A DNA stretch of 25,269 bases from a virus (Duplodnaviria > Caudoviricetes), in IMG/VR virus record IMGVR_UViG_3300017707_001156, positions 1 to 25,269 of that record; one strand, given 5' to 3'. Under the pieces are notes generated by a model. The model was not told where the DNA came from. It worked only from the letters and a program-made list of their open reading frames with translations, and made no database searches. This document shows, piece after piece, positions 2,856 through 20,395 of the stretch; the stretch's first letter is position 1, and every line of letters begins with the position of its first letter. The position numbers were made by a program, and so were the translations under genes.

Positions 2856-3311
2856 TTAGGCGAAGCGACCCAGATTGATAACACGGAAACCAACAACAAT
2901 CTCACCAGCCGTAAGCGAGGCGAGAGCGGCATCAGTAATCTTAAGCTGAACGTCTGTAGCAGACGAAACGGCTTTAACAGGAAGCGAACCACCTTCAATT
3001 GTAGTTGTGCCAGCAGCTTGCACGAAGTCAGTACCAGTGTTGAACACCGGAAGCATGACAGTTGCGGCATCGGCATCCCACGAAGCAATGAAGGCTGTAG
3101 CAGCACCAGAATAGCCAACATCAATAACGACGCTGCTGGAGCCAGCGAAGTCAACAGTGTTGATGATGCCAACCAAGTCCACAGCGGAACCAGCGGGCAA
3201 TTTAAGGATGTTCTTGGTGTTGCCTGTGCCAATTGCAATCAGGTCGAGGTAGTTGAGCTTCACAACATGTGTGAAGTCACCAGTGGATTCATTAACAGTA
3301 AGGGAGGGCAT
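2856..3311 (-). CDS. Putative capsid decoration/cement protein
   Basis: 151 aa all-beta-like protein directly after the major capsid gene and before a strong terminator; codon usage resembles the capsid gene. Confidence 0.6.
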   Translation of the reverse strand: MPSLTVNESTGDFTHVVKLNYLDLIAIGTGNTKNILKLPAGSAVDLVGIINTVDFAGSSSVVIDVGYSGAATAFIASWDADAATVMLPVFNTGTDFVQAAGTTTIEGGSLPVKAVSSATDVQLKITDAALASLTAGEIVVGFRVINLGRFA

Positions 3312-3329
3312 ATCAGTAGTTGTTAGGGG

Positions 3330-4313
3330 TTAGGCAATCTGAGTGATCTTGCCGTGCGCACCCGGATGCTTCACGAGCAGCGTGAGGGCGGTATCAACAT
3401 AACCGCGCTCGCCACCACCGAAGTTGGGGAGGCGGGTAGAACCAAGCGGAATGTACTCGGCAACGCTGTAGTAGTCAGGGTTGAGCAGGTAGCCAGTGTC
3501 CTTGTTGGTTGTGTCAGGAGCGCAGTCAGGGTTCATGTTCACAACGGAAACAAGACCATGGTCGCTCTGATACATCTCAACCGACAGCTTGATTGTGCTG
3601 TTGCCCATGTCCGTGTTGACATTACGAACAGTGTAATCAGCCGAACCGGAGGTGCGGGCGAAGTCCGTAATCTTACGGCGCAGAGCAGTGTCGGCAACCA
3701 GTGTCAGGTTGTTGGTGCTGCCAGTGACGCGATAAATCGAGGTAATCAGGTCATTGAACACAGTCTCGGTAAACGCATTGGAGGCGTAAATCGAGCCAGA
3801 CGGAGTGCGGTAGGCGGCAGGAACATCGGTGCCGGGCGAAGTGTCAACCCACTTGCCGAGGCCACGAAGACCATACACCGTGCCAGCACCGTCTTCAACA
3901 GAGCGGTCATTGCTAGAGCAGAGGGTGGCCTCAATGTCGCGCTTAATCTCGCGCACAGCTTTGGCTTCAGCCTGAGCAATCTTGGCAGGGCCAACAGAGT
4001 CAGCAGCCTCTTGCAGGTCGGAAACCATAAAGTCGCGGCGGAACTTCTGGATGTAGTTACCAAGACGGGCACGACCACTGAACTTGTCAGTGAAAGTGAT
4101 AACGTCGGCACCCTCGGCAACACCAGCGGTACTGGGAGCAGCGAGAGAGTCAACAGTCCACTCTACGAAAGTGGCGGACGCCTTGGTTTTGGTCGCAGCG
4201 GAGAGAACAGGAGTCTCCTCGGGAGCGAGAATTGTGAGAACGTCGAGCAGTTGCTCGCGGTTGGAGACAGCAGCACCGGGATTGGTGGTGTCGTATGTGC
4301 CGGAAAAGGCCAT
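3330..4313 (-). CDS. Major capsid protein (HK97 fold, SU10/DUF5309-like)
   Basis: N-terminal NREQLLDVLTILAPEETP..EWTVDSL..EG motif, RLGNYIQKF, EIKRDIE and C-terminal HPGAHGKI resemble SU10-type capsid proteins; follows portal and scaffold. Confidence 0.9.
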   Translation of the reverse strand: MAFSGTYDTTNPGAAVSNREQLLDVLTILAPEETPVLSAATKTKASATFVEWTVDSLAAPSTAGVAEGADVITFTDKFSGRARLGNYIQKFRRDFMVSDLQEAADSVGPAKIAQAEAKAVREIKRDIEATLCSSNDRSVEDGAGTVYGLRGLGKWVDTSPGTDVPAAYRTPSGSIYASNAFTETVFNDLITSIYRVTGSTNNLTLVADTALRRKITDFARTSGSADYTVRNVNTDMGNSTIKLSVEMYQSDHGLVSVVNMNPDCAPDTTNKDTGYLLNPDYYSVAEYIPLGSTRLPNFGGGERGYVDTALTLLVKHPGAHGKITQIA

Positions 4314-11995: not shown

Positions 11996-12304
11996 TTATT
12001 TAAGTTCAACATCAACTGAATCTCGCTTCTTCAATTGGTTCAACTCGTCAGCAAGCTCAAGGATTGTTTTCTTATGTCCATCCAGATCTCGCTCCAGTGA
12101 GTAGATTGACGCATTGGCCATTTGTAGTGCCTTTGTCTCGCTATGCACGCTAGTCGCATCCATACGAGCTTGCAAGGAAGCATTGGCGTCACGCCAGCGT
12201 AAAATCTCCTTAGAGAGTGATTCAACCCTAGCAGTTAGCTTGGCATTGGAATCACCTAAATCCATGATTTGTTTAATAAGCAGCAGGCAGTCTTCGGCAT
12301 CCAT
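11996..12304 (-). CDS. Coiled-coil hypothetical protein, first gene of left operon
   Basis: 102 aa with heptad pattern; promoter-like sequence immediately upstream. Confidence 0.7.
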   Translation of the reverse strand: MDAEDCLLLIKQIMDLGDSNAKLTARVESLSKEILRWRDANASLQARMDATSVHSETKALQMANASIYSLERDLDGHKKTILELADELNQLKKRDSVDVELK

Positions 12305-12310
12305 AATTCA

Positions 12311-12339
12311 ATCTTTAGTCGCCAACCTAAGATAGTCAA
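12311..12339 (-). promoter_or_regulatory. Putative sigma70-like promoter, possibly leaderless
   Basis: TTGACT-17 nt-AAAGAT, with ATG 6 nt downstream and an AT-rich upstream tract. Confidence 0.45.
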
Positions 12340-12344
12340 GATTT

Positions 12345-12570
12345 ATTTTCACTTATTTCACTCCTACCCATACAGACACAACTATCCTTAAGCCTTTATG
12401 TCCGTTGTTTGTCTCCGTTAGCAGTCTTTATGCCTTCCGTAAACCAACCAACTTCCATTCGCCAACTCCGTCAAAAAACAGACATAAAAACAATTCCACT
12501 GGCTTACCGCTTCCGCTCGCCAGACCGTATTATAATCCAATCTCACCTACACAGTCACCGCTTCGCGTTG
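12345..12570 (-). ncRNA. Candidate structured GGA-rich small RNA or long leader
   Basis: No sizeable ORF; own promoter; 17 bp helix 12395-12411/12472-12488 plus flanking helices; 10 GGA motifs. Confidence 0.5.
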
Positions 12571-12575
12571 GTTCG

Positions 12576-12603
12576 ATTGTATTACGCAAATTCAAAAAGT
12601 CAA
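12576..12603 (-). promoter_or_regulatory. Sigma70-like promoter
   Basis: TTGACT-16 nt-TACAAT on the minus strand. Confidence 0.7.
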
Positions 12604-12689
12604 GACAATTCTTCAAAAGATTATCAGAAAATACCACTCAACTAACCTCACATCATACACTTAAAAATTTTTATTTTATTTTCAGAAAT

Positions 12690-12736
12690 AGACTTCTAGC
12701 CAACTAAAGACTTCTAGTTAAACAAAAGACTTCTAC
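12690..12736 (+). repeat. Three direct repeats AGACTTCTA
   Basis: Copies start at 12690, 12708 and 12727, next to an A/T tract at 12661-12683. Confidence 0.85.
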
Positions 12737-12760
12737 AAATACCCAACCACAAGCAATTTA

Positions 12761-13127
12761 ACCTATCTCATCCTTAAAGCCTATCTACATCACCAGAACC
12801 TACAGCCTATCTACCCCCCATAACACTGTCAAAAACCTCTTAAATCCAAAGCAATCACCCATAGAACCAACCGCAAATAGGACGGCCTAAAGGATATTTT
12901 TTTTAACAGCTACTTAACCTATCGCAATTCTTCTGCCCACCCAACCTACCAACCCCCTCCCCCCATGCCGGAACAATAGAGGGAGGGAATGCTACAGCCT
13001 ATCCAATAGAATAGCATAGGCGCAGCTCGATGCTCTCGCGTGCGTGTGGGGAATATTAAGGGGTGAATCTATCTTACAGCCTATCTACAGCCTATCTCAT
13101 GCCTATCTACAGCCATATCTACAGGCC
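12761..13127 (+). repeat. TACAGCCTATC / CCTATC repeat family (dispersed copies plus 11 bp tandem array)
   Basis: Dispersed copies near 12761, 12779, 12801, 12916 and 12993; tandem units at 13075, 13086, 13097, 13108 and a partial at 13120. Confidence 0.9.
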
Positions 13128-13258
13128 AATCACACACACAAAGGAACGAGCTGGTAATAATAGCTTAATTGGAATGATTCTAAATAAGGAAATGAAGACA
13201 AAAGAAACATTTGAGCTTGCTTTGGTGTGATTGGTGTGATTGCTTGGTGTTCTCACCT

Positions 13259-15325: not shown

Positions 15326-15517
15326 ATGCAAATGACATTAAAACAAAGGCTGTCTTTTCATGTAAATCGCCTAATAAATGACGGCGGCGAGGTAGTAACT
15401 GAAATTCCCCCCAAAATTAAAGCATGGCGACAGCCAACAAACGCCGAAATAAGTTTCGGTTACGGCGCGATCATAGTGCTTGCAATGCGCAAGCGCTTGC
15501 GCATGGTGGAGGTGTAA
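15326..15517 (+). CDS. Hypothetical protein, possibly 3'-truncated
   Basis: 63 aa (start could be 15332); the last codons run through a palindromic promoter-like sequence. Confidence 0.5.
   Translation: MQMTLKQRLSFHVNRLINDGGEVVTEIPPKIKAWRQPTNAEISFGYGAIIVLAMRKRLRMVEV
15480..15507 (+). promoter_or_regulatory. Putative promoter with perfect 20 bp palindromic operator
   Basis: TTGCAA-16 nt-CATGGT enclosing ATGCGCAAGCGCTTGCGCAT (15485-15504). Confidence 0.6.
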
Positions 15518-16329: not shown

Positions 16330-17652
16330 CTACGCTTTGAACGTAGCGGTCGGCCTGTGAAAAGGAACGCCATCACAAATTGCCATACCTTCAGCGCGGC
16401 CTTTTAATTGGATTAACTGGGTGAAAATTGTTTCTTGTGACTGATCTCCGAAGGTTTGCTTGATTCCGTCGTGTTCACTTTTCCAGTTTATGGCCACCAC
16501 TCGGCTTGCTTCGCACTCAATCGAACCTGATTCACGCAAATCAGACAGCATTGGGGCGCGGTTCTCCTTTTCCGTAAGGCGTGACAATTGAGCTAATGCG
16601 ATGACTGGGCAAACATCATTTGCAAGGTCTTTGAGAGTTCGACAAAATCGGCCCAGTGCGACGTCTCGCGTTTCTCCCTTTTGCTGTTCTGGATCATATA
16701 TTTGAAGGTAGTCAATGAAGATTGCGACAGGCTTTTTCTTTAAGCATTGAGCTTTTACCCGTGCAACAATTTGCGTTAAGGTGCGATCACGGTCAAACAC
16801 TTTAAGAGACGTATTGGCTTTAACCTCCTTTAAGGACTCAATCAGTTCGCCAACGTCTTTCTTGTGCAAGCGTCCATTGCGAGCCTCGCGCCATGAGTGA
16901 CCACAAAGCGATTGAGCGAAAAGAGGTGGAAGTTCACTGACTGGCATTTCACGACTAAAAAGCATTACTTCTCCGTATATTTTCGACCAATGCCAAGCGA
17001 GCTGCCTCGCAACAGATGATTTACCCTGAGATGGACGGGCTGCAATGATTACGAGTTCCCCATTCTGGATGGGCCCTAGCCACCGATTAGCCTCTTTCCA
17101 AGGCCAAGGCATACCGTTGTCGCCTTCACGAATTTCACCGCTTAAAACACGTTTAAGGCGCGATTCAATGTCGTCACAAGAGTCGGCAAGGGTTAAAGTC
17201 TTTTCAAGGCCGTCTCTAATTTTAAGACATTCCTCGATTGACGTAGTTAGTTGCGCCATGTCGCCCGTGTAATCACGGGCAGCTTCAATGAAGCTGTGAG
17301 ACCTCTTAATGATCTCACGCAGCATTAAAAGCTCCTGAAGCTTGTCAATAGCATGGCGTGTTCCTGATGTGGTCGGAACTTTTTGTGTTACGTTAAGCAG
17401 GTGCTCAATTCCGCCAACCTGTGCCAGTTTGCCTTTCTCTGTTAAGGCGGCAACAATTGCGTCGTGTTCTAGTGGTGTGCCACGCTTAAAAGCCCACAGA
17501 AAGGTTTTCCATAAGAGCTTGTTCCGTTCGTCAAAAAATGAGTCTTCACAAACTTTCTTGTCGAGGGCAATTTGCATTGTCTCGATTCCGTCTAACAAAA
17601 TCGAGGCTATAACTGTCTCCTCCGCTTGTGATGAATTTGGTAATGGCTTCAT
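16330..17652 (-). CDS. dnaB: DnaB-like replicative helicase
   Basis: N-terminal LPNSSQAEETVIASIL domain, Walker A AARPSQGKS, Walker B IFIDYLQ, LAQLSR and LSDLRESGSIE. Confidence 0.95.
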   Translation of the reverse strand: MKPLPNSSQAEETVIASILLDGIETMQIALDKKVCEDSFFDERNKLLWKTFLWAFKRGTPLEHDAIVAALTEKGKLAQVGGIEHLLNVTQKVPTTSGTRHAIDKLQELLMLREIIKRSHSFIEAARDYTGDMAQLTTSIEECLKIRDGLEKTLTLADSCDDIESRLKRVLSGEIREGDNGMPWPWKEANRWLGPIQNGELVIIAARPSQGKSSVARQLAWHWSKIYGEVMLFSREMPVSELPPLFAQSLCGHSWREARNGRLHKKDVGELIESLKEVKANTSLKVFDRDRTLTQIVARVKAQCLKKKPVAIFIDYLQIYDPEQQKGETRDVALGRFCRTLKDLANDVCPVIALAQLSRLTEKENRAPMLSDLRESGSIECEASRVVAINWKSEHDGIKQTFGDQSQETIFTQLIQLKGRAEGMAICDGVPFHRPTATFKA

Positions 17653-17702
17653 TTATTCGCTGTTGTGTATGTTTTCTATGTTTCCTAGCAGTACTTAAGG
17701 AA

Positions 17703-17909
17703 TCAACCCATGATTGACCCGTTATGGTACTGAATTGGCTTATGTTTTTCAATGTCAAGAAAAGCGTAGCAAATTTGGTCTTCATCCCAGAGCGATTGGG
17801 CGTGTGGAGTTTGGTCGCTGCCGCTTGTGCGGAATATCCAGCGGCAGCATTGATAGCGGGTGTCACATGATGCGTTGTGGCATCGGCATATATCGTTTGG
17901 TAATGTCAT
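17703..17909 (-). CDS. Small Cys-rich phage protein
   Basis: DICRC..C..CCRW...C pattern, likely metal binding. Confidence 0.7.
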   Translation of the reverse strand: MTLPNDICRCHNASCDTRYQCCRWIFRTSGSDQTPHAQSLWDEDQICYAFLDIEKHKPIQYHNGSIMG

Positions 17910-17994
17910 GTTTTTTTACAATCGTTATGGGGTCTTGAACCCATAAACAAAAAGTCCACTTGTTTACGGGTTTGCAGGATTTATGGATGCCTAA

Positions 17995-18082
17995 GTTGAA
18001 CCGTGAATTGCTTACCTTTTTCCAGTTTAGACGGGGTGTTATCAGCCTATCTGGAAGAAGTTGAGGCTAGTTCACGTTGGGC
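17995..18082 (+). repeat. Long imperfect hairpin closing on AAC/GTT (attC-like or target site)
   Basis: Pairings AAC/GTT, GTGAATT/AGTTCAC, GCTT/AGGC and CTTTTTCCAG/CTGGAAGAAG; ends in GTTGGGC. Confidence 0.55.
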
Positions 18083-18587
18083 AAGGCGGAATCACGGGCG
18101 GCGGTGCTTGTCTTGGAGCGCATGGTATTTGTTTACCATATTTAGATACTCCTCATTCTTTTTACGAAGGGCATATTCAAGCCGCTCAATCTCTCGCTTG
18201 GCCACATCATTAGACTTCTTGGCCACCTCGCGCCATGCCCAATCAAGTCCATTACGAGCTGTAGGAGATGCGATATATGACGATCCTGCGCTACACACGT
18301 TCTCCGTCCATCTGTCTATTATTTGAGCGGTTACATGCTTCAGTATATCATCATCACATGACAAGCTCTCAACCATTTTTATCTTTGACTCAGCATCAAC
18401 TGACTGAAGCATATCGTGCAAATCTAACACCAACTCTCCGGCATTGTATTTTATTGTCATAAGTAAATTCGTTAAAGTTTATATCGGAACCAAAACCACA
18501 TACAGCCCAACCAGTCGCTACAGCGAATAGCCCGCAACGTCGCTCATGGTTCGGCTAGTTTCAGTGGGCTATCGCTGAGCTTGGGCG
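18077..18587 (+). mobile_element. Integron-type gene cassette with inverted ORF
   Basis: Starts at G^TTGGGC (18076/77), complementary to its own R'' GCCCAAC; contains one ORF; ends at the attC crossover G^TT (18587/88). Confidence 0.75.
18092..18460 (-). CDS. Hypothetical protein (cassette-borne, C-terminal coiled coil)
   Basis: 122 aa; fits neatly between the two GTTGGGC core sites. Confidence 0.75.
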   Translation of the reverse strand: MTIKYNAGELVLDLHDMLQSVDAESKIKMVESLSCDDDILKHVTAQIIDRWTENVCSAGSSYIASPTARNGLDWAWREVAKKSNDVAKREIERLEYALRKKNEEYLNMVNKYHALQDKHRRP

Positions 18588-18593
18588 TTGGGC
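18505..18593 (+). mobile_element. Integron attC recombination site (89 bp)
   Basis: R'' GCCCAAC, 5 nt spacer, L'' GCTACAGC with extrahelical A, second extrahelical A, 9 bp stem, L' GCTGAGC, 6 nt spacer, R' GTTGGGC. Confidence 0.88.
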
Positions 18594-18808
18594 AGAAACG
18601 GAGCAGCCATCAGAAACTCGCGACGGTCTTCTGAGATTGGCTGTCCCATTCGTGCACTGTATTTCATTTCTGCTATGCACGCAGCCAGTGCCGTTTTCAT
18701 ACCTATGTTCTCGCGCTCAAGCTCGCGGGCGAAGTTCACGCCTACGCATCGTCCCAGTCCAGTGATTGCCTCGCGTTCTTCTGCATCAGTTCTCGGTGTG
18801 TCGCTCAT
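18569..18808 (-). CDS. Phage hypothetical protein (MSDTPRTDA...FARELERE type)
   Basis: Recognisable N-terminal motif of a common small phage protein type; C-terminus encoded by the attC site. Confidence 0.8.
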   Translation of the reverse strand: MSDTPRTDAEEREAITGLGRCVGVNFARELERENIGMKTALAACIAEMKYSARMGQPISEDRREFLMAAPFLPNAQAQR

Positions 18809-19077
18809 TTCTTTCCTTTCGCCTTAATCCCAATCGCGGCGAGGGCTGCGTGGGCTATTTTCTCTGCCGTGAAATGCTCTGCCATATCTTCCCACTCTTT
18901 CTCAATCTGCCCGACCATGCGTTCGACGCTTTCGGCGTCGGCGGGCAGGAGGAAGACGGAATTGACCGCATACGGGGAGAATCCGGCGTAATAAACGGCT
19001 GACTCTTTCTTTGGGTACAGCACGCAGGTATTTCTCCCGCGCCAGTATTTCCGCGCCTTCACTTTTTCTATTTTCAT
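18805..19077 (-). CDS. Hypothetical protein (MKIEKVKARK...)
   Basis: Start reassigned to ATG 19077 after an AAACAACACAAACAAAT leader; ATGA overlap downstream. Confidence 0.7.
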   Translation of the reverse strand: MKIEKVKARKYWRGRNTCVLYPKKESAVYYAGFSPYAVNSVFLLPADAESVERMVGQIEKEWEDMAEHFTAEKIAHAALAAIGIKAKGKK

Positions 19078-19100
19078 ATTTGTTTGTGTTGTTTGTTTAG

Positions 19101-19352
19101 CTAACGACGCCATTCAAGTGCCCTCTTACGTCCTAACGCAAGAAAAATCTGCGTCTGATGCGAACAAATCGTTCTTTCTTTACTAGGCCAAGCTGCAAAT
19201 GGTTGATTAGCCCTACGTTTAGGAGCGCAGCGAAATATGTCATCCCTGCAAGTGCAGGTGGACGTTAAGGCGTTAACCGTGTATTCCCCCTCACCTGATG
19301 CACTCTTAACGTAGAAAATCCAAGGTGCTTCTCCTTGTCTTGAAGTGTTCAT
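19101..19352 (-). CDS. SWIM-type zinc finger protein
   Basis: EYTV..CTC...CSH (CxC-xn-CxH). Confidence 0.8.
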   Translation of the reverse strand: MNTSRQGEAPWIFYVKSASGEGEYTVNALTSTCTCRDDIFRCAPKRRANQPFAAWPSKERTICSHQTQIFLALGRKRALEWRR

Positions 19353-19503
19353 TGATTAGTTTTTTAAGTTCATCCTCATTCGTCCATTTCCCGTTTTCAT
19401 CCTGCCAGAAGTGCGGATTTTCGTTGGGTGTAGAGACGATTCCACAATAGGAGAAACCCAGTTCTGATGCGGCGTAACGCTCAATCTCGTTAAGTGTGCT
19501 CAT
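19306..19503 (-). CDS. Hypothetical protein
   Basis: 65 aa; ATGA overlap with the thyX stop. Confidence 0.65.
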   Translation of the reverse strand: MSTLNEIERYAASELGFSYCGIVSTPNENPHFWQDENGKWTNEDELKKLINEHFKTRRSTLDFLR

Positions 19504-20120
19504 AGCTTAAAAGCCTCAAGCGTTGCTTTGAACGGGTTTCCTTCGATGCTTTTCACTAGGTCAAGCATATTCGCAGCTATGTCCCTAATTTCCTTTTGTG
19601 CCGTAGGCTTATTGCGAAGACCAAGGAAATGCACGAAGGAGCGGAAGTTGAAACTAACGTCCAAGGTCAGCTGGTTAGCGTAAGGCAAGAAGAATCGCGC
19701 ACTCTCTTTAGCCCTAGCGCGGCCTAAGATTGGAGTTAAGCGTGCAAGCGTGGCGTGGTACAGCTCATTAGACGCCAAGCAATGCGTTTTAAGGGCATTT
19801 TGAATGTCGATAGGCCAGTCGGATGGGATTAGTGCTGTTGGCTCCTTAAACTCCTTGTAGCGGGCCGACTCGCCATTGCAACTTACGCCCACCCTGTGTT
19901 TGAGCAAATGTGTGTGCGCACTTTGATCGCATCGCACAAGAAAATGAAGCATTGACTTCTCGAAAGGCGTATGGTGTCCGGCCTCTGCTAGCTGGTTCAA
20001 GAGTGCTGGGATGCGTTCACGCTTCTTAGCGTCCAGCTCTCGGCTAGTGCTAGTCCATGCGCTGAGCGCGTGAATCTCATCGTTGCCGTAATGTCCAATC
20101 AATTCTACTGTGTTATTCAT
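19500..20120 (-). CDS. thyX: Flavin-dependent thymidylate synthase
   Basis: GHHTPFE, KHRVGVSCNGESARY (ThyX motif variant), KESARFFLP, NFRSFVHFLGLR and AQKEIR; start reassigned to ATG 20120. Confidence 0.93.
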   Translation of the reverse strand: MNNTVELIGHYGNDEIHALSAWTSTSRELDAKKRERIPALLNQLAEAGHHTPFEKSMLHFLVRCDQSAHTHLLKHRVGVSCNGESARYKEFKEPTALIPSDWPIDIQNALKTHCLASNELYHATLARLTPILGRARAKESARFFLPYANQLTLDVSFNFRSFVHFLGLRNKPTAQKEIRDIAANMLDLVKSIEGNPFKATLEAFKL

Positions 20121-20166
20121 TTCTTTGGGTTTGTGCTTGCTTTTGGTGTTTTCTCCTCTGTCAACC

Positions 20167-20194
20167 GTAACAAAAACTATGCCTTTTTTGTTAC
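20167..20194. promoter_or_regulatory. 28 bp inverted repeat upstream of thyX (operator candidate)
   Basis: GTAACAAAAA-CTATGCCT-TTTTTGTTAC, perfect 10 bp arms. Confidence 0.6.
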
Positions 20195-20212
20195 AAAAGT
20201 AAACAGTCAAGT

Positions 20213-20395
20213 CTAAAAAGACCTAGTTTTTTTAATTAGTGCTTTCCATGCTGCTTTAGACTCAGGCGATCCATAGCCATATTTGCGCTTGACTTCACTG
20301 AAAGCGTCAAAAGCACGCTTGCTTTCTCTTTCGAGAAACAACTCATTTTTAGTCTTGCTTTTCGTTACTTCACTTATGCGTCTTACGTTAATCAT
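20213..20395 (-). CDS. Small basic hypothetical protein
   Basis: 60 aa ORF in operon orientation. Confidence 0.6.
   Translation of the reverse strand: MINVRRISEVTKSKTKNELFLERESKRAFDAFSEVKRKYGYGSPESKAAWKALIKKTRSF

Follow-up and report, generated by a model that had tools for sequence, protein, structure and literature searches.

The closest described relatives of the locus reported here are integron parts carried by phages. The article text of Qi et al. (2023; PMC9892861) reports such parts in 21 of 10,705 genomes of isolate phages, with 17 CALINs (at least two attC sites and no intI) and 5 methyltransferase cassettes; the cassettes are mostly oriented as in bacteria, and IntI1 recombined 5 of 6 attC sites of virulent phages. 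Given that text, the idea of phage-borne attC sites without an integrase is not new. The text of Loot et al. (bioRxiv 10.1101/2022.09.11.507474) describes IntI-mediated insertion outside att sites (attG) as well as the SALIN, a single attC site without an integrase. A further group of relatives is formed by sedentary chromosomal integrons (Verrucomicrobiota, G003; loci L072, L049, L057 and L038). Finally, T4-type phages possess mobile regulatory cassettes, in which promoter-stem-loops flank small variable early genes and which are thought to move by homologous recombination.

The DNA analysed in this study (hereafter, the window) is a whole IMG/VR viral contig of 25,269 bases, estimated to be 69% complete. 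It shares with the phage CALINs, as these are presented in the article text (PMC9892861), the combination of attC sites and cassettes without intI (virulent phages included), methyltransferase cassettes and GTTRRRY at array borders. In contrast to them, the window and its relatives have up to 10 sites, belong to uncultured freshwater phages, carry bottom-strand genes and an end module, and show turnover between near-identical genomes. The words opposite, Verrucomicrobia and freshwater do not occur in the article text covered. With SALINs and attG sites, as given in the text of Loot et al. (bioRxiv 10.1101/2022.09.11.507474), the likeness is that one cassette with an attC site lies in a genome without an integron and relies on a nearby promoter for its expression; the difference is that insertion here falls at a conserved R box and a module common to 13 contigs, and is not scattered. 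The cassettes of T4-type phages are considered to carry promoters, whereas the architecture found here is that of attC, with junctions at R boxes, and a promoter scan of the region gave 4 sites versus 6.2 expected. Within the article texts covered, no description was found of a mirrored gene orientation, of an end module that is conserved, or of attC arrays on viral contigs from uncultured phages. Phage-borne attC clusters as such have been in print since 2023; what is new is the platform with its mirrored genes and its module cap.

The attC site and its bacterial counterparts

The attC site comprises 89 bases at 18505..18593, its top strand being the + strand of the window, and is flanked by the genes for the thymidylate synthase ThyX (19500..20210; Pfam Thy1, E 2.3e-32), upstream, and a DnaB-like helicase (16330..17652; phrog_19, E 4.4e-56), downstream. 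Both are encoded on the - strand, as are the genes around the site; the recombinogenic bottom strand is this same - strand, on which the phage is coded. The site begins with the R'' box GCCCAAC (18505..18511; sequence and covariance model R1, see below), the 5-nt spacer CAGTC (18512-18516) and the L'' box GCTACAGC (18517..18524; sequence, DNA fold and attC scanner). Within the latter, the extrahelical A18520 is left unpaired against the L' box GCTGAGC (18574..18580; sequence and R1), and a second extrahelical A lies at 18526/27 on the same arm. The stem (18527-18535 with 18564-18572) encloses a 28-nt loop (18536-18563), and beyond L' the 6-nt spacer TTGGGC (18581-18586) leads to the R' box GTTGGGC (18587..18593), in which the predicted crossover is G18587^T18588. 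R'' and R' constitute the inverted pair RYYYAAC ... GTTRRRY with 7/7 complementary positions. According to the attC scanner, spacers of 5 and 6 nt together with two bulges on the 5' arm of the + strand are arranged as in bacterial arrays; the extra base of L'' is A in the window and C or G in the aligned bacterial rows. The first-pass annotation, made from the sequence, had placed the boxes, the spacers and both extrahelical bases exactly where they were found in this study. Its stem of 9 bp was correctly located and is corrected here in one respect: of the nine pairs, eight are Watson-Crick and one is G.T (G18534/T18565).

When folded as DNA, a check which that annotation had itself suggested, the hairpin gave z -2.46 for the + strand, a value matched or bettered by 3 of 200 shuffles, and z -1.86 for the - strand (9 of 200). 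By folding energy alone it is moderately unusual; its architecture is far beyond chance. ARAGORN detected no tRNA or tmRNA in the whole window. A 17-nt inverted repeat (88% complementary; 20172-20231) is situated at the junction of a 60-aa ORF and ThyX, and the overlapping stretch 20211-20261, considered as a further attC site, was rejected (R1 match of 12.1 bits, E 0.38).

The covariance model R1 was constructed from 24 bacterial attC sites located in arrays of intI-bearing genomes; sites chosen by the phage pattern and all of G003 were excluded from the training, and two 129-nt sites were omitted for alignment reasons. R1 is a proxy distinct from the IntegronFinder model, with training sites picked by a rule-based scanner that itself encodes attC rules. 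In the training alignment 97.9% of cells were paired and 12 of 20 pairs compensatory, a result equalled by 0 of 500 shuffles. With filters off, R1 matched 18505-18593 on the + strand over its full length (model 1-84 of 84; 61.4 bits, E 4e-15), which is the orientation that the first-pass annotation had proposed for an attC site and which bears out its reading; the - strand of the site scored 9.3 bits. Elsewhere in the window, and in three phage loci that served as controls, the best match, likewise with filters off, reached only E 0.38. For comparison, the scores were 23.8-76.1 bits on held-out true attC sites, 42.5-70.0 bits on the array beside intI in L072, and 31.3-61.4 bits on the 10 phage hairpins then known, all of which were matched. 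Over all 25,269 bases of the window, exactly one site was recognized by the rule-based scanner.

A pattern derived from the phage hairpins (fitting 7 of the 10 then known) occurred in a bacterial genome collection in 55 stretches at 54 loci, set against a chance expectation of about 17, which is a rough estimate of our own rather than a tool-computed value. At these 54 loci the rule-based scanner identified 48 sites, and in each of five shuffles (approximately 600 kb) none; the bacterial arrays of 3-8 sites had the same geometry as the window attC site. R1 matched 49 of the 54 loci, six of which had contributed training sites, and gave no match in L011, L012, L028, L058 and L055. The integron integrase profile TIGR02249 scored above its curated cut-off in each of the 5 genomes tested and in none of the 14 controls; the intI of L025 and that of L041 adjoin the array and diverge from it. 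Judged by its sequence, the window hairpin is a genuine integron-type attC site, and we infer that IntI would recombine it in the folded single-stranded form.

The similarity to sedentary chromosomal integrons includes the attC geometry, the short cassettes and the arm sequence itself (GCCTAACGCCCCAAGCTCAGCGA...TTCGCTGCAGCGACTGGTTAGGC in L072 versus GCCCAACGCCCAAGCTCAGCGA...TTCGCTGTAGCGACTGGTTGGGC on the - strand of the window). The bacterial integrons differ in that they reside in genomes with intI (adjacent in L025, L041 and L072), have top-strand genes in 31 of 38 cassettes and lack the end module. A sequence profile of 9 phage hairpins scored best on L057, L038, L049, L044 and L051, all of which are Verrucomicrobiota according to record titles and taxonomy, and then on G003; G003 and G006 (the genome of L049) both have intI. 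As the closest attC arms come from Verrucomicrobiota integrons, a host and a helper enzyme from this phylum are predicted, and the arm comparison points to them. A capsid-gene search, considered as a link to the host and run within the phylum of G006 only, gave matches of 27-31% in 3 of 301 genomes and was set aside as uninformative.

Arrays, cassettes and the end module in related phages

The window is a real phage sequence, encoding a major head protein (phrog_1328, E 4.4e-61), a DNA methyltransferase, an Erf-like annealing protein, an exonuclease and a PAPS-reductase-like protein, in addition to the DnaB-like helicase and ThyX. No match to 17600-19600 was obtained by megablast against 50,697 phage records, and the best tblastn match of the helicase was 27.6% identical. 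A protein-anchored search for relatives with the DnaB query retrieved nothing; of the candidates considered, L002 was rejected (it contains a P0002 relative of 44% identity, but no hairpin upstream), and so were L003 and L004, which gave short irrelevant matches.

Several other features of the window were recorded. Contigs of runs X3 and X8 join 19339 to 19499 with 8 other letters between, replacing most of a 65-aa ORF (19306-19503); this is a presence/absence polymorphism of a small gene in which no attC site is involved. A 35-nt near-palindrome (CTTGCAATGCGCAAGCGCTTGCG then GGTGGAGG) at 15478-15512 (+) is 97% identical to L006 1317-1351; in both it lies just upstream of a small gene, the contexts differ and the strand relative to the array is opposite, and the near-palindrome may act as an operator or promoter common to the two. 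The block of structural and packaging genes on the - strand (major head, DNA methyltransferase) ends in the gene-poor region 12300-13200, which contains a 28-nt inverted repeat (12395-12488; 75% complementary); from about 13.7 kb the genes are on the + strand. The cumulative GC skew drops steeply there (GC skew of the interval 12001-13000, -0.343), and the region may be a regulatory or origin region.

The predicted mobile cassette of the window has 511 nt (18077..18587, +) and comprises TTGGGC, then P0002 on the complementary strand, then the attC site up to its G, with GTTGGGC at 18076-18082 and at 18587-18593 as boundaries; its unit structure is deduced from identical cassettes in other phages. 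The cassette gene P0002 (122 aa; 18092..18460, -) belongs to a phage family of unknown function (phrog_32847, E 3.8e-15). The preceding 79-aa ORF, P0001 (18569..18808, -), receives its last 8 codons and its stop (TAG 18571-18569) from the attC site. Eight homologues of P0001 (P0003-P0010) were found at E<=0.01, of which one has an identical C-terminal tail and others diverge directly after PFLAN; in L008 a P0001-like gene is itself a cassette (3281-3538). By reading, 12 of 13 ORFs lying ahead of an R box terminate within the box or the hairpin, the exception being P0002, with its own TGA 9 nt before the R box.

In viral contigs, the exact hairpin pattern was found in 0 stretches and a first relaxed one in a single stretch; the pattern fitting 7 of 10 hairpins gave 28 stretches on 16 distinct viral contigs, with 15 of these being further contigs. 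R1 yielded 79 attC matches on 16 non-redundant phage sources, in arrays of up to 10 sites and in one orientation per contig. In an alignment of the 78 distinct sites, which was fitted to the R1 model, 94.5% of cells were paired and compensatory changes affected 15 of the 20 pairs, a result that none of 500 shuffles reached. The window, in which both the scanner and R1 found one attC site, is therefore formally a single attC site and lies below the two-site threshold for a CALIN used in the text of Qi et al. (PMC9892861); this threshold is reached by its relatives L007 (2 sites), L006 (3), L008 (4) and others with up to 10. Upstream of the first R1 match in L008, GCGGCGACTGGTTAGAC (2380-2397) resembles the 3' end of a degraded further hairpin, and that array may once have been longer.

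The profile of tyrosine recombinases (PF00589), which includes intI, was found neither in the window, as the first-pass annotation had stated for intI, nor in G000 and G001. TIGR02249 at E<=1e-3 also detects ordinary tyrosine recombinases (14 of 14 controls matched), and at this threshold 13 of 14 related viral records (L088 not included) gave no match, among them all 4 with a completeness of 90% or more. The sole viral record with a true integron integrase (486.5 bits) is L089/G014, which is 27% complete and has three attC sites of 72-74 bits, at the top of the bacterial range; this record probably represents part of a bacterial integron that was classified as viral, or else the edge of a prophage. 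Two 100%-complete genomes, shown by their annotation to be real phages, contain no integrase and no serine recombinase among 66 ORFs of at least 110 aa at E<=1e-5. In G016 the gene order is that of the window, with a 3-site array between ThyX and DnaB. The organization of a complete integron, with intI and attI next to the array, is absent from the window. By these comparisons of sequence, the window attC site is shown to belong to a family of arrays of 1-10 sites in freshwater viral contigs without a tyrosine recombinase; the first-pass proposal of a phage-borne, integrase-less cassette platform thereby gains complete relatives that carry arrays and no integrase.

By the longest-ORF criterion, which is a crude one, 40 of 58 phage cassettes (from 11 arrays) have their gene on the bottom strand, as compared with 7 of 38 bacterial ones (Fisher p 1.2e-6). 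P0002, on the - strand, departs likewise from the bacterial organization, in which the ORF is on the top strand, upstream of attC. This bottom-strand orientation, on which the first-pass annotation had not remarked, argues that the phage cassettes are not simply borrowed bacterial ones. Their cargo is of phage type and includes DNA methyltransferases in L006 (phrog_954) and L008 (phrog_757), as well as phrog_3451 and phrog_32847, and a comparison with 653 kb of bacterial integron loci produced one weak protein match only (56% over 39 aa).

Read on the coding strand, each array is closed by a lone R box, which is followed three codons later by an in-frame TAG and by a conserved module of about 200 nt. 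In the window, the lone R box GTTGGGC (18076..18082, +) takes the position of the attI crossover site, and the end module (17885..18097, -; nhmmer profile) is made up of this box, the TAG in frame, TTCCAGATAGG and additional blocks, and occupies the attI position when the top strand is considered. A terminator-like hairpin closes the module in 4 of 6 aligned contigs. The nhmmer profile of the module was matched once per contig in 13 viral contigs, and in all of them at the same array end; 7 of the 13 are outside the training set and scored 84-157 bits. Against 653,605 b of bacterial integron loci it gave 0 hits at E<=1, and the module was rejected as a homologue of a bacterial attI. It was also rejected as a structured RNA, RNAalifold giving a few hairpins but an unsupportive covariation term of +1.98. 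Directly after the module, a 68-aa cysteine-rich ORF (MTLPNDICRCHNASC...; 17703-17909, -) without a family match is present in the window and also in L007.

Cassette turnover and the crossover point

In a metagenome scan, two short sister contigs (L006, L007) were recovered in addition to the window itself (L005). The sister contigs match the window at 100% identity through P0001 as far as GCCCAACGC, become unrelated to it directly after GTTGGGC, and keep the hairpin with compensatory changes (window GCTCAGC/GCTG[T]AGC versus GCTGACC/GGTC[T]AGC in L006). L007 rejoins the window at 18085, at the lone GCCCAAC after P0002. Contigs of other runs leave the window at 18082, 18084, 18494-18505 and 18594-18598: the X3 contig follows the backbone to 18082 and continues with the end of a cassette found in L006 before the third hairpin, and the X10/X11 contig (two identical contigs, counted as one) leaves at 18084 into a third sequence. 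At least four different sequences thus abut the lone R box within 0-2 nt (in the window, L007, the X3 contig and the X10/X11 contig). A lack of gene turnover at the hairpin in related phages had been named by the first-pass annotation as counting against its reading; the sister contigs and those of the other runs diverge exactly there. No empty-site join and no circular-cassette junction occurred among the contigs of 8 runs; a join of 18028 to 18586 in X8 (depth 3.8, side 30, letters between unknown) is too weak for use. Bins 18083-18446 were covered in X2 and X13 and uncovered in X3, X4, X8, X9 and X10/X11; neither this pattern nor the small word shares of runs X12 and X14-X24 were counted as evidence.

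Cassettes of the same or nearly the same sequence were found in different arrays. L077_c4 equals L092_c1 (100% over 239/239) and L082_c7 equals L080_c1 (100% over 175/175), each pair at different array positions in different phages; furthermore, L075_c3 corresponds to the first 700 nt of L085_c1 (98.9%), L082_c6 to the terminal cassette of L099 (94.7%, 419/425) and L082_c3 to the methyltransferase cassette of L008 (94.3%). In the pair L082_c7/L080_c1 the hairpin upstream of the gene is 99% identical, differing solely in the fourth position of the R box, which precedes AA^C. In the downstream hairpin the identity does not extend past GCCTAACG, and the flanks show 60-65% identity, which is the baseline for unrelated sequences. 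Over the same five segments the pair L077_c4/L092_c1 has identities of 54, 92, 100, 79 and 54%. From the identity boundaries of these cassette pairs, the cassette unit is derived as C-hairpin-gene-RYYYAA on the bottom strand; the phage unit is a canonical top-strand cassette with its gene inverted. The boundaries fit the canonical crossover RYYYAA^C, and these sequence comparisons show whole cassettes moving between positions and between phages. On comparative evidence, the window attC is also a site that bounds discrete mobile cassettes, with the crossover in R' (G^TT on the top strand).

One hairpin, at L007 916-1007, is chimeric: its 5' arm is like hairpins 1 and 4 of L008, and its 3' half is 98% identical to hairpin 3 of L008 over 49 nt, with unrelated DNA beyond it. 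The folding of the whole hairpin is poor (-9.5 kcal/mol), and its R1 score is the lowest (31.3 bits). This hairpin, together with the upstream hairpin of the L077/L092 pair being 92% and not 100% identical, indicates that homologous exchange between hairpins also occurs. It is in our view unlikely that such exchange is the main process, the hairpins being merely attC-shaped and shuffled by phage homologous recombination (Erf-like protein, exonuclease, RuvC-like resolvase) between arms of approximately 25 nt, for which the two observations above speak, as do matches to an Erf-like annealing protein and an exonuclease in the window, G010 and G016 and to a RuvC-like resolvase in G010. Shuffling of this kind would resemble that of the T4-type cassettes. 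However, homologous recombination leaves unexplained why the full attC geometry (R and L boxes, 5/6-nt spacers, two bulged bases on one arm) persists with covariation over 78 distinct sites, why no fewer than four cassettes of different sequence adjoin the lone R box while having only 7-10 bases in common, and why the boundaries of the L082_c7/L080_c1 pair lie at the R box.

The probable recombining enzyme and the significance of the platform

We consider it probable that the attC site at 18505-18593 and the lone R box at 18076-18082 bound one mobile cassette in a phage early operon, which a host-supplied integron integrase likely recombines. Once the phage DNA is single-stranded, the - strand, which is the bottom strand, would form the hairpin. 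Its R and L boxes would be recognized by IntI, for which the two extrahelical bases would serve as a guide, and cleavage would take place between A and C of GCCCAA^C. Strands would next be exchanged with another attC site or with the lone R box adjoining the conserved end module, the product being resolved by replication. Because the array carries bottom-strand genes, the operon enters it at the far end, and a cassette inserted at the attI-like end would consequently become the last gene before the terminator-bearing module.

The sites might instead be recombined by a phage enzyme of an unrecognised family other than tyrosine recombinases, for which the end module would be the docking site. 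This module is specific to the phages and present once in each of the 13 contigs, the orientation is mirrored, the cassette pool is distinct from that of bacterial arrays, and many ORFs of the array phages have no family match, all of which would suit such an enzyme. Yet the sites score like IntI-linked attC sites, no candidate gene adjoins the arrays and the two complete genomes share no recognisable site-specific recombinase, making this explanation quite unlikely. That the arrays are inert relics, in which an integron fragment acquired a single time by an ancestral phage was spread by phage mosaicism, is very unlikely: the missing integrase, the fact that no excision product was seen and the single attC site of the window would agree with it, but near-identical backbones differ in their cassette content, 100%-identical cassettes occupy different positions in different phages, and the site structure is kept by compensatory change. 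Finally, a mainly RNA-level role of the hairpin (as terminator, processing site or mRNA stabiliser), with an incidental likeness to attC, is highly improbable, for although the hairpin is transcribed inside the operon and spans the P0001 stop codon, and attC sites are thought, in the text of Qi et al. (PMC9892861), to hold weak terminators, the RNA fold of the region is ordinary (z -1.03; 32 of 200 shuffles as good), no T-run terminator is called at the site, Rfam gave no match over the whole window at gathering thresholds and none in 17650-18700 at E<=1, and such a role predicts neither R-box junctions nor cassette mobility.

A broader picture can be put forward tentatively for the family of the window. 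Freshwater phages, probably of Verrucomicrobiota, may carry a 'mirror integron', that is an integrase-less platform with a cassette pool of its own, genes on the recombined strand and a conserved, phage-specific docking module at the attI position, which would hijack the IntI of the host or use a phage enzyme of an unrecognised kind, and would add and swap accessory genes (e.g. anti-restriction methyltransferases) at the 3' end of the early operon.

Integrons are usually seen as bacterial, and the window adds evidence from natural populations for cassette turnover in phages at the canonical crossover. Moreover, a whole uncultured phage lineage keeps a standardised platform, characterized by mirrored orientation, an end module and no integrase. 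If host IntI does service these arrays, the phages would diversify their early and anti-defence genes by means of a bacterial adaptation machine. The integron integrase is SOS-induced, and, should the above be true, it would be a point of conflict between the phage and its host.
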